Assembly (NCBI GenBank): GCA_038231275.1
Contig: JBBRLQ010000064.1
Location: forward strand, 1-15,031
From: Polyangiales bacterium
GTDB taxonomy: Bacteria; Myxococcota_A; Polyangia; Polyangiales; Polyangiaceae
DNA length: 15,031 nt
Direction: 5' to 3'
The position numbers and the translations under genes were made by a program. Positions within the stretch are counted from its first letter, which is position 1. Each line of letters begins with the position of its first letter. Shown piece after piece: positions 526-15,031 of this stretch. Below the pieces are notes generated by a model. That model did not search any database. It was not told the origin of the DNA and was given only the letters and a program-made list of their open reading frames with translations.

Positions 526-2846
526 GCGAGCCCCGCAGGCTCGAGGAGCAGACGATCGTCTACAACGACGCCATCGCCCGCCGCTTCCTCTTTGCCTCTG
601 TGGGCTGGGGAATCGTCGGGATGCTCGTCGGCGTCATCGTCGCCGCGCAGCTCATCTGGTTCCAGGGGAACGTCGCCCCGCAGCTGTCGTTCGGCCGGCT
701 GCGCCCGCTGCACACCAACGCGGTCATCTTCGCCTTCGTCGGCAACATGATGTTCGCCGGCGTCTACTACTCGACGCAGCGCCTGCTCAAGGCGCGCATG
801 GCCAGCGACCTCCTGGGCAAGATTCATTTCTGGGGCTGGCAGGCCATCATCGTCGCCGCCGCCATCACGCTGCCGTTGGGCTTCACGCAGGGCAAGGAGT
901 ACGCAGAGCTGGAGTGGCCCATCGATATCGCCATAGCGGTCATCTGGGTCGTGTTCGCTATCAACTTCTTCTGGACGCTGAAGAAGCGTAACGAGAAGCA
1001 CCTGTACGTGGCGATCTGGTTCTATATCGCCACGATCGTCACGGTGGCGGTGCTCCACATCGTCAACTCGCTCTCGCTGCCCTGGTCGCCGCTCAAGAGC
1101 TACCCGATCTACTCGGGCGTGCAGGACGCGCTCGTGCAGTGGTGGTACGGCCACAACGCCGTCGCGTTCTTCCTGACGACGCCGATCCTCGGCATCATGT
1201 ACTACTTCGTCCCGAAGGCGGCAGAGCGGCCGGTCTACAGCTACCGGCTCTCGATCATCCACTTCTGGGCGCTGGTGTTCCTCTACATCTGGGCCGGCCC
1301 GCACCACCTGCTCTTCACGGCGCTGCCGGACTGGGCGCAGACGCTCGGCATGGTCTTCAGCGTGATGCTCTGGGCGCCGTCGTGGGGCGGCATGCTCAAC
1401 GGCCTTCTCACGCTCCGCGGCGCGTGGGACAAAGTCCGCACCGATCCGGCGCTCAAGTTCTTCGCGGCGGCGATTACGTTTTACGGCATGGCGACGTTCG
1501 AGGGGCCGCTCCTCTCGATCAAGAGCGTCAACGGCCTCGCCCACTACACCGATTGGATCATCGGTCACGTCCACGCGGGCGCGCTCGGCTGGAACGGCTT
1601 CATGGCTGCGGGAATGTTCTATTGGATGGTCCCGCGTCTCTACGGCACGAAGCTCCACTCCAAGACGCTCGCGGAGACGCACTTCTACCTCGGGACCGTC
1701 GGCATCATCCTCTACGTCGTCTCGATGTGGGTGAGCGGCGTGACGCAGGGCATGATGTGGCGTGCGCTCGATCCGAAGGGCGTCCTGCTCTATCCGTCGT
1801 TCGTCGAGACGTTGATCGCGATCCGGCCGATGTACTGGGTCCGCCTCGCCGGCGGCACGATGTACCTCAGCGGAATGGTGATGATGGCCTACAACCTCGT
1901 CCGCACCGCGCGCTCCGGCAAGGCGGTCGACGGCGAGGCGCTCGTCACGGTGGAGTCGATCGCGCCGGAGGTGCCGTGGAAGAACGTCGTCTTCGGCGGG
2001 CCCGTCGTTCTCGTCGCCGTCGTCAGCGTTCTCGTCGGCGCGCTGGCGGTCGTCGGGATCAACGCGAGCGTCGCGATCGTCGCGCTGGCCACCGCGGTCG
2101 CGATCGGCGGGACCCTCGCGCTCCAGCTCTCGCGCACGGAGGGCCAAAAGGCCTGGCACCGCCTGCTCGAAGGGCGCGCGCTCATCTTCACCGCGTTCGT
2201 CGTCCTGGCGGTGCTCGTCGGCGGAGTGGCGGAGATCATCCCGACGATCATCACGACCCGCACCGACCCCGGCATGAGCGGCGCCGCGACGTACTCGGCC
2301 CTCGAGCTCGAGGGGCGTGACGTGTACCTGCGCGAGGGTTGCTACACGTGCCACTCGCAGATGATCCGGGCGATGCCGTTCGAGTCGGCACGCTACGGCG
2401 ACATCTCGCGCATCGACGACTCGCGGCACGATCACCCGTTCCAGTGGGGCAGCAAGCGCACCGGCCCCGATCTGGCGCGCGTGGGCGGCAAATACCCGAG
2501 CCTCTGGCACTACAGCCACATGCGCGATCCGCGCGCGACCTCGCCGGGCTCGAACATGCCGCCGTACGGGTTCCTCGTCGATGCGAAGGTGGATCTGACG
2601 CGAACGCACGAGAAGCTGCAGGCGCACAAGACCATCGGCGTTCCGTACACCGACGCGCAAATCGCGAACGCCGCGGCCGACGCGCGCGGGCAAGGCGAGG
2701 GGATCGCCAAAGAGCTCCACGAGCAAGGGGCGGACGTCGCGCCCGACAGCGAGCTCGTCGCGCTCGTCTCGTACCTGCAGCACCTCGGCAGGCCGCCGAC
2801 AGTGCTCGAGCCCAAGGTCCCCGCCGTCGCCGCGGCGGGGCACTGA
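522..2846 (+). CDS. ccoNO: cbb3-type cytochrome c oxidase, fused subunits I and II (CcoN-CcoO)
   Basis: CcoN motifs [36 protein letters not shown]. CcoO motifs [13 protein letters not shown] (CxxCH), [14 protein letters not shown]. No stop between the two parts. GTGA overlap with ccoS. Confidence 0.97.
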
Positions 2847-2858
2847 AAGGAGGAGGCG

Positions 2859-3080
2859 ATGTACCACGAATTTTTTACCAAGAGCCCGCTCCTCGCGTTC
2901 CCGATCGTCGCGCTCGTCATCTTCGTCGCGGTGTTCGGGCTCATCGTCCTGCGGACGCTGAGCAAGCGGGAGCGAGAGTCGGCGGGCGTCGCCAGTCTTC
3001 TCCCGCTCGAAGACGACGCGGCGCCACCGGCCGCGCCGGCGCGAATCGGTTCCACCCGTTCGGAGGGTCGTCATGAGTAG
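2859..3080 (+). CDS. ccoQ: Small single-TM subunit, CcoQ/FixQ-like
   Basis: Strong RBS (AAGGAGGAGG) before the ATG. One TM helix followed by ...LLPLEDD, typical of CcoQ. Located between ccoO and ccoP. Confidence 0.8.
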   Translation: MYHEFFTKSPLLAFPIVALVIFVAVFGLIVLRTLSKRERESAGVASLLPLEDDAAPPAAPARIGSTRSEGRHE

Positions 3081-3642
3081 TGATCCGGGCACGGAGCAGA
3101 AGGTCGTCCACGTCACCGGCGACGGCATCGAGGAGTTCGACAGCCACCTGCCCAACTGGTGGCTCGTGACCTTCTTCGGCGCGATCGTCTTCAGCATCGG
3201 GTACTGGTTCTATTTCCAGGTCTTCCAGATCGGCGAGACGAACCAAGCGGCCTGGCGCCGCGAGGTCGCCGAGATCGCGGAGCGCTCCGGGCAGAACGTG
3301 CCGGTCACCGCGCAGCAACTCGCCGAGCTCTCGAAGGATCCAGCGGTGCTCGCCGAGGGGAAGCAGATCTTCGTGTCGACGTGCGTGGCGTGCCACGCGC
3401 TGAACGGCGGCGGCGTGGTCGGGCCCAACTTGACCGACGAGTATTGGATCCACGGCGGCGGTCCCGAGCAAATCTACGCGACGGTCAAGGACGGTGTCCC
3501 GGTGAAGGGAATGCCGGCGTGGGGGCCTCAGCTCGGGGCGACGCGCGCGCAGGCAGTGACGGCCTACGTGCTCACGCTCCGCAACACGCACGCGCCCGGT
3601 GGAAAGCCGCCGCAAGGAGACAAATTCGCGCAAGCGAATTGA
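3073..3642 (+). CDS. ccoP: cbb3-type oxidase subunit III CcoP (short, mono-heme form)
   Basis: N-terminal DGIEEFDSHLPNWW (FixP_N-like) plus a TM helix, a single CVACH heme motif, GPNLTDEYWIHGG and GMPAW. GGAGG RBS upstream. Confidence 0.92.
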   Translation: MSSDPGTEQKVVHVTGDGIEEFDSHLPNWWLVTFFGAIVFSIGYWFYFQVFQIGETNQAAWRREVAEIAERSGQNVPVTAQQLAELSKDPAVLAEGKQIFVSTCVACHALNGGGVVGPNLTDEYWIHGGGPEQIYATVKDGVPVKGMPAWGPQLGATRAQAVTAYVLTLRNTHAPGGKPPQGDKFAQAN

Positions 3643-3649
3643 CGATGAC

Positions 3650-5059
3650 ATGACCACGCACCTCCCCGTCATCCCTCCGAAGAGCTCGCTTCGGATCGAC
3701 GGAACGCGCAACTTCGTGTACCCGGCGGACGTGAAGGGGAGGTTCACGATCGCGCGTAACGCTCTATTTTATGCCCTGATTGGCGTCTACGCGGCGCTCC
3801 CGTGGATCCAAATCCGTGGGAATCCGGCGGTCTATCTGGACATCGCCGAGCGAAAGTTCTTCCTCTTCGGGGCGACGTTCAACGCGCAGGACATCTGGAT
3901 GACGGTGTTCCTGCTCACCGGCGCCGCGTTCGGCCTCGTTTTCGCGACGGCGTTGCTCGGTCGCGCGTGGTGCGGCTGGGCGTGCCCGCAGACGGTCTTC
4001 CTCGAAGCCGTGTACCGACGCATCGAGCGCTTCGTGGAGGGCCCCCGCGAGAAGCGGATGCGCCGCGACGAGGGGCCGTGGACGATGAACAAGCTCGCGC
4101 GCAAGCTCGTCGTGCACACGCTGTGGATCGTCGTGTCCCTCGTCCTCGCGCACGTGTTCCTCAGCTACTTCGTGTCGCTGCGGCAGCTGTTCGACATGAT
4201 GCGCCATCGCCCGGCCGAGCACCCCGAGGCGTTCCTCGTCGTGATGGCGCTCGCCGGCCTGTTCTATTTCGACTTCGCCTGGTTCCGCGAGCAGTTCTGC
4301 GTCGTGATGTGCCCGTACGGACGCCTCCAGTCCGTGCTACTCGACCCCGACTCGCTGGTCGTCGGATACGACGCCGGCCGCGGCGAGCCGCGCGGAAAGG
4401 TGAAGGATCCTTCGCGCGGCGCGTGCGTCGACTGTAACCGCTGCGTGGTCGTGTGCCCGACCGGCATCGACATCCGCAACGGCCTGCAGATGGACTGCAT
4501 CGCCTGTACGCAGTGCATCGACGCGTGCGACGAGGTGATGGACAAGGTCGAGCAGCCGCGGGGGCTCATTCGCTACGACTCCCAGAACGGCCTCGCCGGC
4601 AAGCCGCGCCGCGTCGTGCGGTCTCGCGTGCTCGTTTACACGGGTCTCGGCGCCCTCGGCCTGCTCGTCGCGACGTTGTCGCTCTCGCGTCACGAGCGCT
4701 TCGAGTCCAACGTGCTGCGCGTGCAGGGAGCGCCGTATGTGCTCGACGGCGACGACGTCCGGAACGCGTACCGTTTGCACCTGATCAACAAGGACGGCCG
4801 CGCGACGACGTTCCACGTAATGCCCGAAGCGACGCCGGGCGTGTCGTTCATCGTGCCGCTCCCTGACGTGAAGCTGGAGTCGCTCGCCAGCGCCGACGTG
4901 CCGCTCTTCGCGACCATGCCGCGCAGCGCGTTTCACCCGCCGCGGACGCTGCGGATCGTCGTGACCAGCGATCTGGGCGATACGCGGACGATGATGGCGC
5001 CGTTCCTCGGGCCCGAGGGCGGCGCGACGCCGCACGCGACGCTCGGAGCCACGCCGTGA
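3650..5059 (+). CDS. ccoG: Cytochrome c oxidase accessory protein CcoG/FixG (4Fe-4S membrane protein)
   Basis: GRAWCGWACPQTVF, FCVVMCPYGRLQ, CVDCNRCVVVCPTGIDIRNGLQMDCIACTQCIDAC and a C-terminal Ig-like region (RNAYRLHLINK). Start placed at ATG 3650, just after the ccoP stop. Confidence 0.95.
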   Translation: MTTHLPVIPPKSSLRIDGTRNFVYPADVKGRFTIARNALFYALIGVYAALPWIQIRGNPAVYLDIAERKFFLFGATFNAQDIWMTVFLLTGAAFGLVFATALLGRAWCGWACPQTVFLEAVYRRIERFVEGPREKRMRRDEGPWTMNKLARKLVVHTLWIVVSLVLAHVFLSYFVSLRQLFDMMRHRPAEHPEAFLVVMALAGLFYFDFAWFREQFCVVMCPYGRLQSVLLDPDSLVVGYDAGRGEPRGKVKDPSRGACVDCNRCVVVCPTGIDIRNGLQMDCIACTQCIDACDEVMDKVEQPRGLIRYDSQNGLAGKPRRVVRSRVLVYTGLGALGLLVATLSLSRHERFESNVLRVQGAPYVLDGDDVRNAYRLHLINKDGRATTFHVMPEATPGVSFIVPLPDVKLESLASADVPLFATMPRSAFHPPRTLRIVVTSDLGDTRTMMAPFLGPEGGATPHATLGATP

Positions 5060-5775
5060 ACGCGCTGCCGCTCGCGACGTTCGCGCTCGGGCTCGTGGGC
5101 TCCACGCATTGCGTCGTCATGTGCGGAGGCATCGTCGGACTCGGCGCTGCTGCACGCGGACCGCGGTTGCCGCTCGCGCCGGGCGTCGGGCTCGCGCGCC
5201 GGACGATCGCGAGCTCGGCGGCGCAGCACGTCGGTCGCATCGGCACCTACGCGGTCGCAGGCGCGCTCGCAGGGGGTGCGGGTCGCCTGGCGGCGTCATC
5301 GTGGCAGCTTGGCCTCGAGATCGTCGCTGGCGCGCTCATGATCGGTCTTGGCCTCTTCTTGTGCGGGCTCTTGCCGAGCTTCGCGCGCGTCGAGTCGGTG
5401 GGCGCTCCGCTCTTTCGTCGCCTCCGGCCCCTCGGCCAGCGGCTCCTGCCGCTGCGTACGCCATGGCACGCGCTGGCGTTCGGCGCGGTGTGGGGACTCT
5501 TGCCGTGCGGCCTCGTTTACTCGGCGCTCTCGCTGGCAGTCCTCGCCGGTTCCGCGTCGAACGGCGCGCTGGCGATGGTGGCGTTCGGCGCAGGCACGGT
5601 GCCGGCCCTGGTCGCGGTCTCTGCGCTGCTGGGGTCGATGCGGCGCTTCTTCGCGGGCGCACGGCTGCGCGTGGCGGGCGGCGCGTTGGTCGCGCTGCTC
5701 GGCGCGGTCCACATGACTATGGCGATCGATCGACTCCACGACCCGCGCGCGACGTGCCACGCGGCGGCGCCGTGA
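5056..5775 (+). CDS. DsbD_2 / TauE-SafE-like membrane protein commonly associated with cco operons
   Basis: GSTHCVVMCGG and WGLLPCGLVYSAL motifs, multiple TM helices, GTGA overlap with ccoG. Confidence 0.88.
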   Translation: MNALPLATFALGLVGSTHCVVMCGGIVGLGAAARGPRLPLAPGVGLARRTIASSAAQHVGRIGTYAVAGALAGGAGRLAASSWQLGLEIVAGALMIGLGLFLCGLLPSFARVESVGAPLFRRLRPLGQRLLPLRTPWHALAFGAVWGLLPCGLVYSALSLAVLAGSASNGALAMVAFGAGTVPALVAVSALLGSMRRFFAGARLRVAGGALVALLGAVHMTMAIDRLHDPRATCHAAAP

Positions 5776-5821
5776 GCAGGCTTCGATTGCCCTGACGCGC
5801 GCGGTGGTCTAGCACCAGCGT

Positions 5822-6880
5822 ATGGCCGATCCCATCAGGCTCACGAAGATCGCGAAGCGCGCCGGTTGCGCGGCGAAGCACCCGCCCGGGTACCTCCTTC
5901 CTCTCCTCGCGGGGCTGCCGAAGGTCCAGGATCCGAACGTGCTCATCGGGAGCGCGTCATCGGACGACGCGGCGATTTACAGGCTCTCGGCCGACACGGC
6001 GCTCGTCCTCACGACCGATTTCTTTACGCCGGTCGTCGACGATCCGTACGACTTTGGCGCCGTCGCGGCGGCGAACGCCCTGAGCGACGTGTACGCGATG
6101 GGCGGGAGGCCGATTTCGGCGCTGAACATCGTGGGGTTCCCCGACGAGACGCTCGACGGTGCGGTCCTCGCCGAGATCTTGCGCGGCGGCGCGGAGAAGG
6201 CGCGCGAGGCGGGGATCGACATCGTCGGCGGCCACACGATCAAGACCGACGAGCCGATCTACGGCCTCTCGGTGACCGGCCTCGTGCACCCCGATCGCGT
6301 CCTGTCGAACGCAGGAGCGCGCCCCGGCGACCTCCTCGTGCTGACGAAGCCGCTCGGCATCGGGATCCTGACGACGGCGGCGAAGCAAGACGTGGACACG
6401 CGCGGCGCGATAGGCGACGCGATCGCGCTCATGAAGACGCTGAACCGCGCGGGCGCCGAGGCGGCGGAGGGATTGCCCATCCACGCGGCGACCGACGTGA
6501 CGGGGTTCGGGCTGCTCGGGCACCTGCGCAACGTGCTCGCGGCGAGCGGCTGCGCGGCGACGGTGTGGCTCGACGCGGTGCCGGTGTTGCCGGCGGCGTG
6601 GGAGTACGTGCGCGCGGGCGTCGCGCCAGGCGGCACGCACGCGAATCGCCGGTTTTTCACGGCCGGCGAGTGGGTGGCGTACGAGAACATCGACGACCCG
6701 GAGCAGCTCGTCTTGTGCGACGCGCAGACGTCGGGCGGCCTCCTCTTCGCGTTGCCCGAAGCGGACGCGCCCGCGCTCGTTCGCGCGCTCGAAGCACGTG
6801 GTACTCCGTGCGCGGCGATCGTCGGACGCGTCGAAGCGGGCGCACCGGGCAAGGCGCGCGTCGTTCGTTCGCGTCGCTGA
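5822..6880 (+). CDS. selD: Selenide, water dikinase (selenophosphate synthetase), Cys-type
   Basis: N-terminal RLT...GCAAK, DDAAIY, TTDFFTPVVDDPYDFGAVAAANALSDVYAMGG, GGHT, LTKPLGIG, TDVTGFGLLGHL, DAQTSGGLL. Confidence 0.96.
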   Translation: MADPIRLTKIAKRAGCAAKHPPGYLLPLLAGLPKVQDPNVLIGSASSDDAAIYRLSADTALVLTTDFFTPVVDDPYDFGAVAAANALSDVYAMGGRPISALNIVGFPDETLDGAVLAEILRGGAEKAREAGIDIVGGHTIKTDEPIYGLSVTGLVHPDRVLSNAGARPGDLLVLTKPLGIGILTTAAKQDVDTRGAIGDAIALMKTLNRAGAEAAEGLPIHAATDVTGFGLLGHLRNVLAASGCAATVWLDAVPVLPAAWEYVRAGVAPGGTHANRRFFTAGEWVAYENIDDPEQLVLCDAQTSGGLLFALPEADAPALVRALEARGTPCAAIVGRVEAGAPGKARVVRSRR

Positions 6881-6900
6881 CCTCGCGTCGCCGGGCGCGG

Positions 6901-7677
6901 CTACGGCCCTTTTCCGTATCCCTGCAGACGGTAAACGTAGCGCCCGAAGACCTCGCGGAGCACGCTGGAGCTCTGGGTGAGGAGCCCCGCGCGTGGGAGC
7001 CACGTCGACGAGAACCGCCCGCTGTCGAAGCTCCGGTAGTCGACGGGCTCTGCGTCGACGTCGAGGCCGACCGCGCGAAAGCAGTCGAGCGCGCGCGGCA
7101 TGTGCATCGCGCTCGTGACGACGAGGAGGCGGGTCATGCCCCGGTCGCGCGCGATCTTGGCGACGTAGACGGCGTTCTCCCGCGTGTTGCGCGCCTGATC
7201 CTCGACGACGACGCGGTCCGCTGCGATGCCCCAGTCACTCAGCTGCTTCGCGATGACGCGCGCCTCGACCACGTCGGCGCGCGACGCGTCGAGAGCGCCG
7301 CTCGAGACGACGACCTGCTTCGCGCGGCCTGCGCGCAGGAGATCGAACGTCACCAGCATGCGCTCGACACCCTCGTTGTATTGCGGCGCGCCGAAGGTGG
7401 CGGTCGCCCGATCGTCCACGACCCCGCCGAGGAGCACGACGGCGTCGTACACGACGTCCGGCTTGGCGGTCTGGGTCGACGGCGTCTCGAGCGCGCGCGC
7501 CAACGCGTTCGCCGTCGGCTCAATCGAGAAGACGTACAGGATGCTGGCCGCCGCGAGCGCCGCCCATTTCTGCCCGCGGCGCGGCTTCTTCTTCGGCACC
7601 GCGTACAGGCAAAGGAGAATCGCCCACGCCAGCGGGCTCAGCAGGATGTCGAGGATCTTCGAGAGGACGTAAAACAA
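6901..7677 (-). CDS. YdcF/ElyC-like DUF218 envelope protein
   Basis: TTG start, MFYVLSK...P N-terminus with 2 TM helices, VVLLGG, VVSSG, EDQARNTRENA, LVVTSAMHMPRA, PVDY, and E..G...Y near the C-terminus. Confidence 0.9.
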   Translation of the reverse strand: MFYVLSKILDILLSPLAWAILLCLYAVPKKKPRRGQKWAALAAASILYVFSIEPTANALARALETPSTQTAKPDVVYDAVVLLGGVVDDRATATFGAPQYNEGVERMLVTFDLLRAGRAKQVVVSSGALDASRADVVEARVIAKQLSDWGIAADRVVVEDQARNTRENAVYVAKIARDRGMTRLLVVTSAMHMPRALDCFRAVGLDVDAEPVDYRSFDSGRFSSTWLPRAGLLTQSSSVLREVFGRYVYRLQGYGKGP

Positions 7678-8978: not shown

Positions 8979-10922
8979 TTACGCTCGGGCCGTGTCGGCG
9001 GCGATGACGGCGAGCAGCCCGTCGCCGTATTGCTCGATGCGACTGGGGCCGAGGCCGAAGATCGCCCCGAGCTCCCCGGGCGACCGCGGCCGTGCCACGG
9101 CCAGCTCGACCAGCGTGCGATCGTGGGCGACGACGTACGGCGGCACCCCACGCCCGCGCGCGATCTCCGCCCGATGCGCGCGCAGCTTTTCGAAGAGCGG
9201 ACGGTGCTCCTCGCCGATCTCCGGCCTGTCCGCGCGCTTCGCACGGCGATTTCCGTCACTGCTCGAAGAAGACGCCGTGCGGGCGCGCGGCTCGAGGGGG
9301 AGCACCAGCCGCGCCGGGCCGCGCCCGGTCATGACTTCTCCACCTGCGCGCGTCACGTACGGCACGGGGTGATCGGTGGGCGTGAGATCGATCCACCCCG
9401 CGGCCAGGAGCGCGCGCAAGAGCGCCATCAGCCACTCGTGCGAGCGGTCGCGGAGGAGCCCGAACGTCGTCAGACCCGTGAACCCGAACTTGCGCGTCCG
9501 CTCCGTCTCCGCGCCGCGCAGCATCTCCGCGATCGCGATGAGGCCTGCGCGCCCCTTCGCCCGCGCCACGCCCGAGAGCGCCATGCGCACGACCTTCTCC
9601 GCGCGCGCGCGCTCCTCGCTCGCGCCGTCGGCCGACTCCGGCACTTCGTCGAGGGCCATGCAGACGTCGCAGTGTCCGCAGCCGCCGAGGGTCTCTTGCT
9701 CGTCGCCGAAATACCGAAGGACAAAGTCATGGCGGCAGCTCCGCGCGTCGAGGTAGCGCAAGAGCTCGCGGAAGAGGCCCCACGCGCGCGCCGTCGCCAC
9801 GGGATCGGCCGGCCCGTCCATCGACGACTCACACATCCGGCGCCGCAGCGCGATGTCCACGCCCGAGCACAAGAGGAGGCCGTGCGCCTCTTGCCCGTCA
9901 CGCCCCGCGCGCCCGACCTCCTGGTAATACGCCTCGATCGACGCCGGTGGCTGCACGTGCACGACGGCGCGGATGTCCGAGCGATCGATGCCCATGCCGA
10001 ACGCGTTGGTGGCCACGACGACGTCGACCTGGCCGCCGGCGAACCGGCTCGCCACGCGCGTGCGCTCCTCGGCGCTGGCGCCTGCGTGGTAGTGCGCCGC
10101 TTTGTAGCCGCGGTCACGGAGGAGCGCCGCGTTCTCTTCCGCGCTCTTGCGGGTCGCCGCGTACACGATGGCGCCGCCGCGCTCGCCCTTGCCGATCGCC
10201 TTCTGCAGCGCTGTGAGAACCGAGCTTCGTGCCTCGCGCGGCCCGTCCACGAAGCGCGCCTCGAGGTGCAAGTTGGGCCTCGCGAAGCCGCGAAGCACCT
10301 CCTTGTGAGGCACGCGATCGAAGCCGAGCTGCGCCAGGATCTCGCGCCGCACCTCTGGCGTGGCCGTGGCGGTGCACGCGAGGACGCGCGGCGGCTGCAG
10401 TCGCGAGAGGAGAGCGCCGATCCTCAGGTAGTCGGGCCGAAAATCGTGCCCCCACTGCGCGATGCAGTGCGCCTCGTCGATCGCGACCAGCGGCACGTTG
10501 CACGACGCCACGAACGCGACGAACGCGTCCGAGGCCAGCCGCTCGGGCGCGACGTACACGAGCTTGTACTCGCCGCGCCGCATGCGTTGCTCGCGCTCGC
10601 GCCGCGTGTCCAAATCGAGCGTCGACGCGAGGAACGTCGCCGGCACGCCGCGCGCGTCGAGGCTGCGCACTTGGTCTTCCATGAGCGCGATGAGCGGCGA
10701 GACGACGAGCGTGGTTCCAGGCAAGACGGCCGCCGGCAGCTGGTAGGTCAGCGACTTTCCGCCGCCGGTCGGCGCGACGACGAGGACGCGCCCCGGTCCC
10801 TCGAGCAGCGCATCGATCGCGTCCCGCTGCCAGGGGCGAAACGCGTCGAGGCCAAAGCGCTCGCGCAGGACGTCGTCGAGGTCCAGGGGTGCGGGCTCGA
10901 GGTTCAACGCGGGCATGCTCAT
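8979..10922 (-). CDS. recQ: ATP-dependent DNA helicase RecQ (helicase core, Zn-binding/RQC, HRDC)
   Basis: APTGGGKSLTYQLPA, VVSPLIALMEDQV, IDEAHCIAQWGHDFRPDY, TATA, ATNAFGMGID, YYQEVGRAGRDG, CRH...CGHCDVC, HRDC-like VPPYVVAHDRTL. Start could be 10916. Confidence 0.96.
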   Translation of the reverse strand: MSMPALNLEPAPLDLDDVLRERFGLDAFRPWQRDAIDALLEGPGRVLVVAPTGGGKSLTYQLPAAVLPGTTLVVSPLIALMEDQVRSLDARGVPATFLASTLDLDTRREREQRMRRGEYKLVYVAPERLASDAFVAFVASCNVPLVAIDEAHCIAQWGHDFRPDYLRIGALLSRLQPPRVLACTATATPEVRREILAQLGFDRVPHKEVLRGFARPNLHLEARFVDGPREARSSVLTALQKAIGKGERGGAIVYAATRKSAEENAALLRDRGYKAAHYHAGASAEERTRVASRFAGGQVDVVVATNAFGMGIDRSDIRAVVHVQPPASIEAYYQEVGRAGRDGQEAHGLLLCSGVDIALRRRMCESSMDGPADPVATARAWGLFRELLRYLDARSCRHDFVLRYFGDEQETLGGCGHCDVCMALDEVPESADGASEERARAEKVVRMALSGVARAKGRAGLIAIAEMLRGAETERTRKFGFTGLTTFGLLRDRSHEWLMALLRALLAAGWIDLTPTDHPVPYVTRAGGEVMTGRGPARLVLPLEPRARTASSSSSDGNRRAKRADRPEIGEEHRPLFEKLRAHRAEIARGRGVPPYVVAHDRTLVELAVARPRSPGELGAIFGLGPSRIEQYGDGLLAVIAADTARA

Positions 10923-10991
10923 GGCCGCACGGGGATGGCAATCGTCATGCCCAGCAGCGCAGCACGGATATAGCGCGTTTTTCGATCACGC

Positions 10992-11030
10992 GGGTGTCCC
11001 GGACGGCGGTCCCGGCGTCCTGGGACACTC
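10992..11030. other. GC-rich inverted repeat / hairpin between the recQ start and the IS end
   Basis: GGGTGTCCCGGACG (10992-11005) pairs with CGTCCTGGGACACTC (11016-11030) with one bulge and one G-T pair. No U-tract. Confidence 0.6.
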
Positions 11031-11057
11031 GCTCTGCGCGGGCCGCTCCTCCTCTAG

Positions 11058-11574
11058 TTACACGGCGGTGCAGAATTCGGTTGAAGGACCGGCCTGAGCC
11101 GCCTCGATGAAGCGGCGCCGGGTCGGACGCTCGATTTCGCGTCGGGGGCGGTCAGGCGGTGTGGCGGGCGATGGCGACCAGGTTGTTCGAAATCCCCGCC
11201 CAATAGGCGCTGCGCTCGATGCCGTGAGCGCCGCGGTAGCGCGTGCGGTGCATGTCGAAGGTGTGTTTGAGGCGCGCGATGCGCGCTTCTCCGCCTGCAC
11301 GCCATGCACGTGCACGGCGGAACGGACGACGACGCTCGCGTTCGAGCCACGCGACGGAGCGGTGACCGGGTTTTGGAATCGCGACGCACGCGACGCCCAT
11401 CGCTTCCGGGGCGCGCACGTTTTCGAGCGAAAAAAAGCCTCGATCCGTTGCGAGCACGCGCGGTGGTCGCTTGAAGACGCTGCGGTGATGCTCAACCGAA
11501 GGTACGAGCAGTGCGGTGTCGTGCTCGGTCACGACAGCGATGTCGGTGACGATGCCGCCTTCGGCTTCCTGCGG
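11058..11574 (-). mobile_element. Truncated IS remnant (ISNCY/IS5-like): transposase 3' portion plus probable right end
   Basis: Transposase fragment (next feature). The minus strand continues ~90 bp to ...GAATTCTGCACCGCCGTGTA|ACTAG, a plausible terminus next to a CTAG. Left end is absent; exact terminus uncertain. Confidence 0.65.
11152..11574 (-). pseudogene. C-terminal fragment of a DDE transposase (ISNCY/IS5-like)
   Basis: Frame reads PQEAEGGIVTDIAVVTEHDTALLVPSVEHH...LATDRGFFS...WRAGGEARIARLKHTF...RYRG...SNNL, with the DRGF aspartate and R...E..I..LK glutamate motifs. In-frame TGA at 11575-11577 upstream; N-terminal majority is missing. Confidence 0.85.
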
Positions 11575-11582
11575 TCAATTTG

Positions 11583-11648
11583 GTCCACCGACATCCACTC
11601 GACCCGAGCTCCCGCCTTGTCGCGTGTAACGCGTTTTAGGAAAACCGC
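11583..11648 (+). repeat. Direct repeat copy 1 (66 bp) with dif/Xer-like core at 11619-11646
   Basis: GTCCACCGACATCCACTCGACCCGAGCTCCCGCCTTGTCGCGTGTAACGCGTTTTAGG-A-AAACCGC; identical to 14813-14878 except position 11641 (A vs T). Confidence 0.95.
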
Positions 11649-11764
11649 GCCGTTACCGCCCGCATGGCTTTGCATTTCCAACCCCCTCGATGCAGCGTTC
11701 GAGCGGACTCTCGGCGATGTACAGGCGAAGGAGCGGGTAGCCCATCCACTTGCGCAGGCGCCGG

Positions 11765-14005
11765 CTACTTCTCGGTCGCTCGCGCCGCCTCCACCGGCGC
11801 GGGGGACGGTACGCTCGGAACCCGGCTGGCTCGCGCGGGCAGCGTGAAGTAGAACGTCGCGCCGGCACCGAGGGTGCTCTTGGCCCCGATTCTCCCGCCG
11901 TGCGCTTCGACGATCCCCTTGGCGATGTACAGCCCCAGCCCCGCCCCGGCGCTGCGCACCCGGCGCGCCTGCCAATAGCGGTCGAAGATGTGCGCCAGCT
12001 CGAGGCCGTCGATCCCGGGCCCGGTGTCCTCGACGGAGAAGCAGACCGTTTCCGCCTCGGCGCGGATGGCGATCGTGACGGCGCCGCCCTGCGGGGTGAA
12101 CTTGATCGCGTTGCCGATGAGGTTGGAGAAGATCTGGAAGGCACGCTCCACGTCTACGTCCACCAACGCGTCGCTCTCGCCGCAAGAGAGGCGCACCCCC
12201 TTCGACTCCGCGATCGGCGCGAGGATCACGAACGCGTCGGAGACGAGCCGGCTCGCCTCATAGGGCTGGGGCGAGACGTCGAAGCGGCCGGCCTCGATCT
12301 TCGCGAGATCGAGCAGATCGAGGACGAGCCGGTTCATCCGGTCCACCGCGCGCTGAACGCGTCCAAGCGTGCTCTCGGCGCCGGCGTCTCCCCCGACGTG
12401 CCCGCGGAGCACCGCTGCCGAGAGCTGAAGGACGTTGAGAGGATTCTTCAGGTCGTGCGACAGCACCGCGACCATCTCGTCGCGGAGGCGCACCGCCTGC
12501 TCGGCGCGCGCGATTTGCTTGCCGAGATCGAGCTCGATCGCCCGCCGTCGGAGGTCCTCTGCGGCCTCGATTTCGGCGGGCCGCCAGGGGCGCGCGCGCG
12601 CACGCACGACCTGCTTCCAGGCATTGAACGAGTGCCGCGGGTGGTAGCGCGCACCGCCGTCGCTCACCTCCAGGGTCTTGGTCGGATCGCCCGCCCAGGT
12701 GACCGTCCGAACGAGCTCCGGACGAAACCACAGCACGTGGGAGAGCGCGACCCCAGGGAGGGCCAACGCGAGCAGCCCGCTCGCGACGTGAGTGTAGTCG
12801 GCCGCCGGCGGGTGCCGCTCCGCGAGCGCGTCGGTGTGCAGGATACCCGACGACCCTTCCTTGGCGAGCCACGCGACGAGCGCCGAGATCTGCGCCGTCG
12901 AAGGGGTCGCGCCCACCGTTCGCACGCTGCCGGCAGCACACACCGCAGCGCCCGTCGCGCCGACGAGCGCGAGCAGGGCGTCCCCTCGCTGCACGAGACC
13001 GCTCGCCGGGTCTTCTTGCGCGTCGCGCATCGCATCGACGAGCGTCGCCTCGTAGCCTTTCAGCGCACTGCGCAAAGTCCGCGCCTCGATCTCTTCGAGC
13101 GCCGCGATCTGCAGCGACACCACGCGCCCGATGACCTCGCACGCCGCGCGCGCCGCGAAGCTGACGTGTCGCGGGTGCCGGTGATGGCAGGCGACGAGCC
13201 CCCAGAGCGTCTCCGCACGCACCAGCGAAATGCTCATCGACGCGCGAACGCCCATGTTTTGCAGGTACTCGAGGTGCACCGGTGAGACGCTGCGCAGCGT
13301 GGAGAACGACATGTCGAGCGGCGCGCCCGTGTCCGGGCGCAGCTCGGGGACGAGCGGGATCGGCGTATAGCCGGCGTCGGGGATCAGACGCAGCCAGTTG
13401 AGTAGGTACATCTCGCGCGCCTGCCGCGGGATATCCGAGGCGGGGAAGCGCAGTCCTCGGTAGCTGTCCACGTCGACCGCGCGTGCCTCTTCGATCACGT
13501 CGCCGTGTCCGTCGGCGTCGAACCGGTAGAGCAGGACCCGGTCAAAGCCGGTGATCTTCCGGATCTCATCGACGGCGATGCTGCACACCTCCGCCACGCT
13601 GCTCGGCCGCTGGAGACGCGCGAGGGCGCTCCGCAGGGCCGCGTCGCTCGCGGAGGCGGCGGGGTCGTGCCGCTCGAACTCGAGGATGGCGACGCCCTGA
13701 TGGTAGTGCGCGCGCACGTCGAACAGCGACCCGCTCACGTGCGCGAGGAGGGGCTCGCCGAGCGTCGACCCCGCCGCGCGCACCGTCGAGAGCAGCGCTT
13801 CCGCGGTGACACCGACGAGCGCGGAGAGCGGCCGGCGGAGCGCGTCCGCCGGGGCAACGCCGAAGTAGGTCGCCGAGTTCGCGCTGACCTGCTGGACCTC
13901 GAAGCGATGCGTGTCGAGGACGACGAGCACACCGTGCGGCTGGACGGCACCGGGGACGTGGATTGGCTCCACGTCGCAGGCGCGCGCTTCGTCCTGGTTG
14001 GTCAC
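11765..14005 (-). CDS. bphP: Bacteriophytochrome histidine kinase (PAS-GAF-PHY-HisKA-HATPase), 746 aa
   Basis: GTG start overlapping the bphO stop. N-terminal biliverdin-binding Cys in ACDVEPIHVPGAVQPHG, GFDRVLLYRF, FPASDIPRQAR, LRSVSPVHLEYLQNMGV, LWGLVACHH, PHY tongue PRHSF, H-box SHDLKNPL, N-box NLIGNAIKF, G boxes DTGPGI and GAGLGL. Confidence 0.96.
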   Translation of the reverse strand: MTNQDEARACDVEPIHVPGAVQPHGVLVVLDTHRFEVQQVSANSATYFGVAPADALRRPLSALVGVTAEALLSTVRAAGSTLGEPLLAHVSGSLFDVRAHYHQGVAILEFERHDPAASASDAALRSALARLQRPSSVAEVCSIAVDEIRKITGFDRVLLYRFDADGHGDVIEEARAVDVDSYRGLRFPASDIPRQAREMYLLNWLRLIPDAGYTPIPLVPELRPDTGAPLDMSFSTLRSVSPVHLEYLQNMGVRASMSISLVRAETLWGLVACHHRHPRHVSFAARAACEVIGRVVSLQIAALEEIEARTLRSALKGYEATLVDAMRDAQEDPASGLVQRGDALLALVGATGAAVCAAGSVRTVGATPSTAQISALVAWLAKEGSSGILHTDALAERHPPAADYTHVASGLLALALPGVALSHVLWFRPELVRTVTWAGDPTKTLEVSDGGARYHPRHSFNAWKQVVRARARPWRPAEIEAAEDLRRRAIELDLGKQIARAEQAVRLRDEMVAVLSHDLKNPLNVLQLSAAVLRGHVGGDAGAESTLGRVQRAVDRMNRLVLDLLDLAKIEAGRFDVSPQPYEASRLVSDAFVILAPIAESKGVRLSCGESDALVDVDVERAFQIFSNLIGNAIKFTPQGGAVTIAIRAEAETVCFSVEDTGPGIDGLELAHIFDRYWQARRVRSAGAGLGLYIAKGIVEAHGGRIGAKSTLGAGATFYFTLPARASRVPSVPSPAPVEAARATEK

Positions 14006-14637
14006 GAGCCTGCCAGCGCTGCGTCGAGCCAGACGGTGAGCGTCTCGAAGGTCTCGATGGCCGCGGCGATCGCGACGTCGGTGTCGATCGCGGAGGCTGC
14101 ATCGACGTGGCGCGAGAAGCGCGTCCACATCGCCCCGGTCGCGTCGCCGTAGCCGCTGAAGAACGCCGCGCCCCCGGCGGCGTCGAGGCCGAGCGCGGCG
14201 TCGACGTGGCGAAGGATGATCCGTCCGCCGAGCGTCGCGCCCTCCAGCACGTAGAGCACCCCGATCGCCTGCGAGGCGGACGTGACGCGAGGCAGGTCGG
14301 CGCAGCGCGGGAGCGCCTGAACCTCGGCGACGGATTTCCCGAGCGCGGCGAGGTCGGCGACGAGCAGCGCCACCTTGCCGCGATCCCCGAGCGCGAGCGC
14401 GACCCCGTGCTCCGCCGCTGCTCGCGAGAGCCGTGGCTCGAGCTGCGCATAGACTCCATGAAACGCCTCGAGCACGCGCACATAAGTGGCAAGGGTCAGC
14501 GACGGAGACATCAGCGGGAGCGACGCCTCGACGCGCGCGTGCGCGAGCCGGGTGGCCTCGCGCAGCCTGTGCATCGGGCTCTGCGTCGCGGGCATCGTCG
14601 GCGCGTGGAAGAGGAGCTGGCTCGGTGCGGCGTTCAC
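14002..14637 (-). CDS. bphO: Biliverdin-producing heme oxygenase BphO
   Basis: RLREATRLAHARVE (proximal His), GVLYVLEGATLGGRII, FFSGYG..TGAMW..F, AIETF. GTG start at 14637 preceded by AAGAGGTGA RBS (alternative ATG at 14595). Coupled to bphP by a GTGA overlap. Confidence 0.92.
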   Translation of the reverse strand: MNAAPSQLLFHAPTMPATQSPMHRLREATRLAHARVEASLPLMSPSLTLATYVRVLEAFHGVYAQLEPRLSRAAAEHGVALALGDRGKVALLVADLAALGKSVAEVQALPRCADLPRVTSASQAIGVLYVLEGATLGGRIILRHVDAALGLDAAGGAAFFSGYGDATGAMWTRFSRHVDAASAIDTDVAIAAAIETFETLTVWLDAALAGS

Positions 14638-14705
14638 GCTCACCTCTTTCCCGCAAGACGTCATCGGCGTTTGCATTTGCGTCGTGCGTGCCCGAAGGGA
14701 CGACG

Positions 14706-14736
14706 ACCATAGCACTCTGCAGACTTGCCGCCGCAA
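14706..14736 (-). promoter_or_regulatory. Possible sigma70-type promoter for bphO-bphP (extended -10)
   Basis: Minus strand TTGCGG-19 nt-TATGGT with TG one base upstream of the -10 (TGcTATGGT). Spacing is suboptimal; pattern match only. Confidence 0.3.
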
Positions 14737-14812
14737 GCCGCTCGAACGCGCAGCGCTAGCGCACCGCGCTTAGCTAATCTAGGTCATCCGTTGAGCGTAG
14801 CGCCTACTCAAT

Positions 14813-14878
14813 GTCCACCGACATCCACTCGACCCGAGCTCCCGCCTTGTCGCGTGTAACGCGTTTTAGGTAAACCGC
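14813..14878 (+). repeat. Direct repeat copy 2 (66 bp) with dif/Xer-like core at 14849-14876
   Basis: Same sequence as 11583-11648, offset by 3230 bp. Core GTCGCGTGTAA-CGCGTT-TTAGGTAAACC. Confidence 0.95.
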
Positions 14879-15031
14879 CCACGAGCCGACGGGGCCGCAT
14901 CGCCGACGACGAGGCTCACCGAAACGCCCAGCCCACCCAGAAACGCGCACGCGGACGCAAGCCCGGGCCCTGCGAGATCGCCCAGCCATAGGGCATCCCG
15001 CCGTCGTCGATCCTCCCGATGATGGGCGCCC

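Follow-up and report, generated by a model that had tools for sequence, protein, structure and literature searches.

The window analyzed here is the whole of contig C64 (15,031 nt), part of a 9.28-Mb, 164-contig, ~70% GC draft genome. Its right part holds two minus-strand genes: a heme oxygenase (BphO-like; 14002–14736; Pfam PF01126, E 1e-13), which is the upstream gene of the pair, and a bacteriophytochrome histidine kinase with the Pfam architecture PAS_2-GAF-PHY-HisKA-HATPase_c (11765 to ~14050, start codon approximate). Both lie between two copies of a repeat unit, called F1 below. A repeat search of the window returned this pair as direct repeats of 66 nt (11583–11648 and 14813–14878), 65/66 identical and 3230 nt apart, and listed no inverted copy. 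To the left, on the minus strand, is the C-terminal remnant (~135 aa; 11152–11561) of a DDE transposase of IS4/IS5/IS1182 type, recognized by a weak Pfam match to DDE_Tnp_1 and by tblastn with homologues from genomes G026 and G024. No tyrosine recombinase gene and no tRNA were found in the window, and an Rfam scan of 10900–15031 gave three microRNA chance matches only (E ≥ 1). Near the contig start, 9-nt tandem units (CGCGTCAGC / CGCGCCAGC) occupy 235–288 within an open reading frame.

Each repeat contains, on the plus strand, a core of two 11-nt arms around a 6-nt spacer: GTCGCGTGTAA-CGCGTT-TTAGGAAAACC in copy 1 (11619–11646), and the same spacer with the right arm TTAGGTAAACC in copy 2 (14849–14876). 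A preliminary description, made from the letters alone, had taken these for XerCD-type sites in which the repeats end. Its motif letters and coordinates were exact when re-read from the sequence, its manual match counts to E. coli dif (7/11 for the left arm; for the right arm, 6/11 in copy 1 and 7/11 in copy 2) were correct, and the identity of the two spacers was confirmed. That the repeats end in the site is true of the window pair only: copy 1 runs 38 nt further, to 11686, and copy 2 stops 2 nt past the motif because it is fused there to a different sequence, present twice in the genome.

This two-copy sequence (14879–15031) replaces the right part of the unit in copy 2 and runs off the contig; it is 98.7% identical to C1:767149–767306 (158 nt). 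It holds the 3′ end of a minus-strand open reading frame (~14916–15029), of which the 37-aa end at 14919–15029 had no relative in the 60 genomes searched. On C1, 171 nt separate it from a complete F1 unit; in the window it is fused into the unit, and contigs C64 and C1 terminate at the same base within it. In a source-like public sequencing run, its unitig had a depth of 18.9 versus 7.5–11.3 (~2x) and extended 636 nt past the window, while the unitigs covering the window stretch broke inside both unit copies. Among the joints listed in that run, none linked the flanks across the cargo module; contigs cannot reveal rare forms. Three other public runs contained only 90%–95% relatives of the two cargo genes, with the units almost uncovered.

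The F1 family has four members in this genome: the two window copies, C1:766867–766977 and C18:1145–1226. Copy 1 (11576–11686, plus strand) is complete at 111 nt and 96% identical to the C1 copy over that length; these two share 111 nt with different flanks on both sides, and the unit therefore continues 38 nt past the motif. Copy 2 (14813–14878, plus strand), aligned with the C1 and C18 copies, has lost ~38 nt on the right and carries a 3-nt deletion at its left end relative to copy 1. A second family, F2, has four members of ~105 nt on C68, C2 and C56. The two families have in common a left end CAAWTTGGTCC, a core of the form ..CGCG..N..TTASGTAAAC and a TTCC-rich right end. Copy number and boundaries could be read directly: a joint F1 and F2 profile found exactly eight copies in 9.28 Mb and nothing else, and all eight have sharp common boundaries and unique flanks. 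Core changes within the genome include GAA for TAA in the C18 copy, the spacer CGGGTT in the C1 copy, and, in F2, GGTC where dif has ATAA, so that the inner left arm is lost.

Searches beyond this genome with the unit sequence itself returned little. A BLAST search of 40 relatives with the 121-nt unit produced two matches, both short and weak (E 0.002 and 0.007) and unconfirmed by the family profile, and a strict F1 pattern scan of a metagenome collection gave two AT-rich chance matches of one identical sequence. No empty-site orthologues of the C18 and C56 copies were found; the matches were to paralogous domains only. The possibility that the unit is the end of the adjacent DDE transposase was rejected: homology to related transposases begins outside the unit, and an in-frame extension of the transposase through it is weak and contains two stops. 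An attC-type hairpin was likewise rejected, as DNA folds of six unit sequences gave z values of −2.2 to +1.0, five of the six within one standard deviation of shuffles; no end-to-end pairing was seen in any of these folds.

That the module lies in an island was observed directly from synteny and from its flanks. Collinearity with two congeners covers 555–5772 and 6903 to ~11043 and resumes on contig C20. The DDE remnant abuts the left end of unit copy 1, with DNA homology beginning at ~11561 and excluding the unit, and an N-terminal piece of the same transposase lies at C20:145063–145263, with ~230 codons missing between the pieces; the gene is single-copy in the genome. Since its pieces flank the island on both sides, the island appears to sit inside a disrupted, unrelated insertion sequence. 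Neither same-genus genome has a full-length counterpart of the phytochrome, the nearest being 52% identical and from another genus. The heme oxygenase-bacteriophytochrome module is thus recently acquired cargo, outside the core genome. Within the window, the stretch 5773–6902 is a gap in the collinear match to both congeners that holds an AIR-synthase-related gene (5822–6880; AIRS, AIRS_C), and it may be a second small insertion. Elsewhere in the genome, a second island, with F2 copies, is an insertion of at least 10.7 kb between sequences that are adjacent in G001 (C67:8906/8921). Here it spans C68:790–8901 plus C2:1–2590 and contains three F2 units in one orientation, among which lie modules for a glyoxalase-family protein with an S41 peptidase, a Kelch-repeat protein and a beta-lactamase-fold protein.

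The units correspond to the last ~100–110 nt after the transposase gene in IS91/ISCR-family (Y2-HUH, rolling-circle) elements of other Polyangia. Four sets of loci found in other Polyangia genomes through protein homology to the transposase (L084, L065/L083, L081 and L091) carry the same three blocks after the transposase stop, with their order and their distance from it unchanged, and copy 1 of F1 is collinear with them. Position 3′ of a Y2-HUH gene at an element terminus was seen directly for the units of F2 (on C68), G233, G022, L081 and L084. In this genome, the F2 copy at C68:1420–1523 begins 54 nt after the stop (1366) of a C-terminal IS91-family transposase remnant with a weak ISCR match. 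Five more Y2_Tnp genes are present, all on contigs of 1.7–2.7 kb; the ends of the other IS91-like contigs (C122, C105, C126 and C127) gave no significant alignment to F1 or F2, and no Y2 transposase gene lies beside any F1 copy in this genome. With an nhmmer profile built from three foreign ends, F2 copies were the top three matches in the genome (E 2e-11, 5e-7 and 2.4e-3), while F1 ranked fifth at E 3.2, and reached E 0.32 and 1.1 (not significant) once F2 had been added. An exact 15-mer is common to F1 and the L081 terminus (0/500 shuffles), and the F1 core is shared with L065 (4/500 shuffles). By itself F1 does not reach significance with the foreign-end profile, so its membership rests on the collinear blocks and these short exact matches.

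The closest named relatives of the transposase are those of ISCR2 (ISVsa3) and ISCR1, at 39% identity. The right ends of the units, ..TTTCCTATGCGC in G233 and ..TTTCCTACCCCC for F1 on C1, resemble the oriIS termini of ISCR2 and ISCR1 taken from plasmid records (..CTTCCTATACG and ..CTTCCTATACCC, respectively). According to PMC13181058, IS91-family oriIS regions have subterminal palindromes, 82 bp of the right end is enough for transposition, and the tetranucleotides GTTC, CTTG or GTCC serve as target beside the oriIS end. GAAC follows only two of the four F2 copies, and it is absent from the right flanks of the 18 G233 copies for which the alignment shows them. The inner (left) boundary of the unit carries GTCC, a target or cleavage tetranucleotide of the family (PMC13181058), and GTGTCC is repeated at the left end of the G233 element. 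From these sequence comparisons, F1 and F2 are read as solo oriIS-side end-pieces of ISCR-like elements. The motif does not stand alone as a site that closes a repeat; it is the central block of a ~110-nt end-piece of IS91/ISCR type. A separate arrangement was seen at L047 (G002:C595, same genus; ~1790–1990), where a 70-aa remnant of the same IS91-like transposase is followed by the left-end motif of the unit, then by an opposite-oriented dif-like site, AAGGCGCATAA-GACAAA-TTATGTAAATT, with 20/22 matches to the G000 dif arms. Next comes another left-end motif, which is fused to a partial core, and last a phd/vapC-like pair.

Solo units and arrays of them were found in other genomes. G233, a near-complete genome of the same family, carries three copies of a 1.97-kb element with a Zn_Tnp_IS91 plus Y2_Tnp transposase of 601 aa, and the last 100 nt of this element occur in 19 copies with identical left and right boundaries and unique flanks. 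Three of these units end full elements and the rest are solo, with one head-to-tail pair; all informative differences among the 19 copies lie to the right of the spacer. Two arrays, one of 13 units in 41 kb (12 in the same orientation) and one of five units in 37 kb (all in the same orientation), both run downstream of a full element. The arrays lie away from the chromosomal dif, which is at 3.56 Mb, their own positions being 2.74, 4.41–4.45 and 5.23–5.27 Mb. G022 has at least 12 units, and in G197, which belongs to another family, direct units of ~107 nt are spaced 3.7 and 3.0 kb apart. The preliminary contrast with Acinetobacter modules, based on the direct orientation of the sites, stands for the window and for the G233, G022 and G197 arrays alike. 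In G197, one cassette between two direct units at L171 (G197:C100; 3751–4524) contains an IS110-family (DEDD) transposase gene. A different terminus, lacking a dif-like block, is repeated in G038 (L071/L072; C13:98000–127000) as four to five direct 930-nt repeats, 99.7% identical and 2–8 kb apart, each comprising the 3′ part of an IS91-like transposase gene and ~215 nt of element end.

In the genome-wide scan against E. coli dif one site stood out. This site, AACGCGCATAA-GATGTA-TTATGTAAACT at C37:35994, matches E. coli dif at 20/28 positions, occurs with up to three mismatches in 5 of 24 other genomes of the same family, nearly always once per genome, and gave no matches in a reversed-pattern control; on this pattern it is probably the host dif. 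The host also encodes XerD (an open reading frame on C22; TIGR02225, 350.5 bits, cut-off 329.6) and a XerC-like protein (on C4; TIGR02224, 325.3 bits, just below the cut-off of 335.15), both outside the window. For dif likeness, ~18.5 million 28-mers on both strands of the 9.28-Mb genome were scanned. Against the arms of E. coli dif, 1,281 positions scored at least 13/22 and 190 at least 14/22, so the similarity of the window cores to E. coli dif is at background level and unremarkable. Against the host dif arms, copies 1 and 2 score 15/22 and 16/22 (spacer 2/6 in each). Just 27 genome positions reach 15/22, of which one is dif itself and seven are F1 or sister-family copies; from the score histogram, ~3 positions are expected by chance at 16/22 or above. 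The 10-mer TTANGNAAAC occurs 15 times in the genome, eight times in F1 or F2 units, once in dif and six times elsewhere.

The case for a dif-related core comes from the element family. In an alignment (A1) of nine units from five genomes, nine of the ten invariant columns belong to the 28-nt core. They comprise CG of the left arm, TT..G..AAC of the right arm and a single base of the spacer. The spacers differ wholly between genomes (GATGGA, CGCGGC, TGGGCG and CGCGTT). The preliminary description had counted a lack of preferential conservation of a TAA-N6-TTA core among other copies of the repeat as part of what would refute its site reading; within this genome the core is not preferentially conserved, and across the element family it is the best conserved block. 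Several of the cross-genome units had been found with the core pattern, which biases this sample toward having the core. In a class-wide set of 46 distinct 300-nt stretches downstream of related transposase genes, five scored at least 17/22 against dif arms, whereas shuffles of these stretches reached a maximum of 15/22 (0/920 at 16 or more).

Tracking of the local dif was observed directly in several hosts. The G233 dif is AATTCGCATAA-GATACA-TTATGTAAACT and its unit core is ACTTCGCATAA-GATGGA-TTCCGTAAACT, a match of 19/22 in the arms and 4/6 in the spacer that includes the host-specific TTCG of the left arm. Family f32 has CGATAA and TTATGTCAAC in the dif arms, against CGATAA and TTACGTCAAC in those of the multi-copy sites. 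Multi-copy sites copied the local dif spacer at 5/6 positions, with the last base differing, in three genus sets: GAAATA/GAAATC in G197 (14 copies of the type among those listed, 10 with exact GAAATC), TAAATA/TAAATC in G369, and CAGATA/CAGATC in G271, G391 and G456. Arm tracking is weak among hosts of the same family because their dif sites are nearly alike. The spacers of the F1, F2, G022 and G443 units match their own host dif at 0–2 of 6 positions, and recombination with dif itself is therefore not expected there. No dif-like motif was found in the enterobacterial ISCR1 and ISCR2 ends (best 13–14/22, within the shuffle range) or in more distant IS91-like ends of this and other genomes; since the ISCR1 and ISCR2 ends lack it, this transposase family does not generally need the block. 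In G209, of the same family, three dif-like sites (C539:4147, C766:3298 and C568:4934) have the related spacers GAACCC, GAACTC and GAACCA, the kind of trace that integrated Xer-dependent elements would leave.

Conserved arms, a free spacer and tracking of the host dif are properties of the element family, not of this genome alone, and on balance they suggest that its core probably has a Xer-related role. Counting against such a role are the core-pattern bias of the sample, the near identity of dif sites within a family, the many units with spacers that differ from dif, and the position of the arrays away from dif. The proposal that the window motif is a site for a Xer-family recombinase survives as mimicry of dif at the level of the family; the window copies themselves are degenerate, with 15–16 of 22 arm positions and 2 of 6 spacer positions matching.

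The account that we favor, with moderate confidence, is that the window repeats are solo oriIS-side end-pieces of IS91/ISCR elements with a dif-mimicking core, and that they bracket an acquired module. F1 would be a non-autonomous terminal segment of ~110 nt derived from just downstream of the transposase gene. For the origin of solo units and arrays, and for Xer proteins acting on the core, we infer the following. End-pieces would detach from the transposase gene, spread in Polyangia-type myxobacteria and pile up in the same orientation downstream of an element, parting accessory gene modules; in the window, two of them would bracket the heme oxygenase-bacteriophytochrome pair within an island that congeners lack. 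Two plausible origins of their fixed inner boundary are that the element would be cut at an internal site resembling a terminator, or that initiation would occur at one direct end-piece and termination at the next. The central 11-6-11 block would most likely be a XerC/XerD binding or recombination site carried by the element, with a plausible role in joining or resolving circular forms made of a unit and its cargo. Because the window copies are degenerate and copy 2 is truncated, present-day activity at this locus is doubtful.

A more far-reaching version of this account is put forward only tentatively, with low confidence: the elements may represent an undescribed gene-capturing class, an ISCR-like transposon that carries a mimic of the host dif in a ~100-nt end-piece and has cassette arrays built by Xer. 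Circles of an end-piece and its cargo would be made by the HUH transposase or by Xer excision, and host XerC/XerD would insert them at resident end-pieces and remove them again. The result would be uniformly oriented, integron-like arrays of up to 13 units in 41 kb, and the phytochrome module of the window would be a cassette whose sites have since decayed.

Were the units instead working XerC/XerD sites, the module would enter and leave as a circle in the manner of a dif module or an integrative mobile element exploiting Xer (IMEX). Direct repeats around an accessory module are the outcome of circle integration at a resident site, and the identical spacers of the two window copies, the dif mimicry of the family with spacer copying in other genera, the nearly uniform orientation of arrays and the XerD and XerC-like proteins encoded by the host all agree with such an active cassette. 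We nevertheless regard it as unlikely for this locus, where the cores match the host dif at just 15–16 of 22 arm and 2 of 6 spacer positions, copy 2 is without the right third of the unit and has its junction after the core, not in the spacer, and no listed contig joins the flanks across the module (rare forms being invisible in contigs). The right boundary of the unit is moreover a transposon terminus, which Xer recombination does not explain.

An explanation that dispenses with Xer, and that we consider improbable, has the core serve the Y2-HUH transposase at oriIS as a recognition sequence or structural element, its likeness to dif going back to one ancestral accident. The core does form part of a transposon end in which further blocks are conserved as well, subterminal palindromes are reported for IS91-family oriIS (PMC13181058), and the spacers of most units are unlike the host dif. 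Function at oriIS does not need the motif, however, as the ends of ISCR1, ISCR2 and distant IS91-like elements lack it. Conserved arms with a free spacer are the pattern of a two-arm recombinase site, and neither the 5/6 copies of three genus-specific dif spacers by local units nor the left arm in G233 that follows the TTCG variant of its host favors this explanation.

Background-level similarity to E. coli dif and the failure of BLAST to find the unit in 40 related genomes would fit a leftover of segmental duplication or a scar of homologous recombination with a coincidental likeness to dif, a very improbable reading that is already contradicted by eight units with sharp common boundaries and unique flanks and by the occurrence elsewhere of homologous units joined to transposase genes. 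A cassette array with integron-type attC sites, suggested by ~100-nt units in direct orientation between small accessory gene modules, has a negligible probability given units with no whole-unit hairpin and, by eye, no R″/R′ core pair, no integron integrase nearby and a window without any tyrosine recombinase.

Several known systems share parts of this organization. Sedentary chromosomal integrons (VCR-type attC) have homogeneous ~100-nt direct repeats between accessory cassettes, whereas the units described here have no attC hairpin, no IntI and a different recombination core. IMEXs such as the CTX, VGJ and TLC phages and the gonococcal genetic island are mobile elements that exploit Xer and carry a mimic of the host dif, in some hosts with likeness in the central region too; after integration they are flanked by direct dif-like sites. 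The element-borne mimic and direct flanking sites are alike, but the arrays here lie away from the chromosomal dif and the mimic is carried on a transposon end-piece instead of a phage or island. Xer-dependent modules are, to our knowledge, known mainly from Acinetobacter plasmids, on which pdif sites are bare 28-mers of alternating orientation. Those dif modules, as presented in two reports (PMC6449649, PMC13141974), are accessory modules bounded by XerC/XerD-like 11-6-11 sites, as here; the present sites differ in being direct, chromosomal, within a ~100-nt transposon end and tied to a rolling-circle transposase. Insertion sequences of the IS1202 family (ISAjo2) sit near Xer sites with constant spacing and orientation, but the dif site is a target outside the element (PMC10132070), whereas the dif-like block here lies ~35 nt inside a conserved terminus resembling an ISCR oriIS end.

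The likeness to ISCR/IS91 elements (ISCR1, ISCR2 = ISVsa3, IS91 and IS1294) extends to the Zn_Tnp_IS91 plus Y2_Tnp transposase, the lack of inverted terminal repeats and a ..TTCCTAT(A/G)C..-type terminus downstream of the gene, and, with ISCR1, to variable accessory genes on the oriIS side (PMC6218425). Here, unlike in those elements, the last ~100 nt are found many times as solo copies whose inner boundary is fixed, end-piece arrays are interspersed with gene modules, and, in distinction to ISCR1 and ISCR2, the end has a dif-like 11-6-11 block. Judged from titles and abstract openings, no literature linking IS91/ISCR ends with dif or Xer was found, and the nearest published systems are dif modules and pdif-targeting elements of the IS1202 family (PMC6449649, PMC13141974, PMC10132070). 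A dif-like core in ISCR-type end-pieces across related bacteria is thus apparently an undescribed pattern. ISCR elements are known for their position beside captured genes, but by one account the mechanism of gene capture by ISCR is still debated and transposition undemonstrated for these elements (PMC6218425).

The units account for breaks in the assembly, both at the five transposase-bearing contigs of 1.7–2.7 kb and at the two contigs that end in the two-copy sequence adjoining a unit. They also mark the borders of islands and could help to locate accessory gene arrays when myxobacterial metagenome bins are searched. If the favored account is true, a detachable transposon end that imitates the host dif and marks module borders would join the ISCR and Xer-module systems, and it would offer a testable route to cassette-like gene exchange in large environmental genomes.
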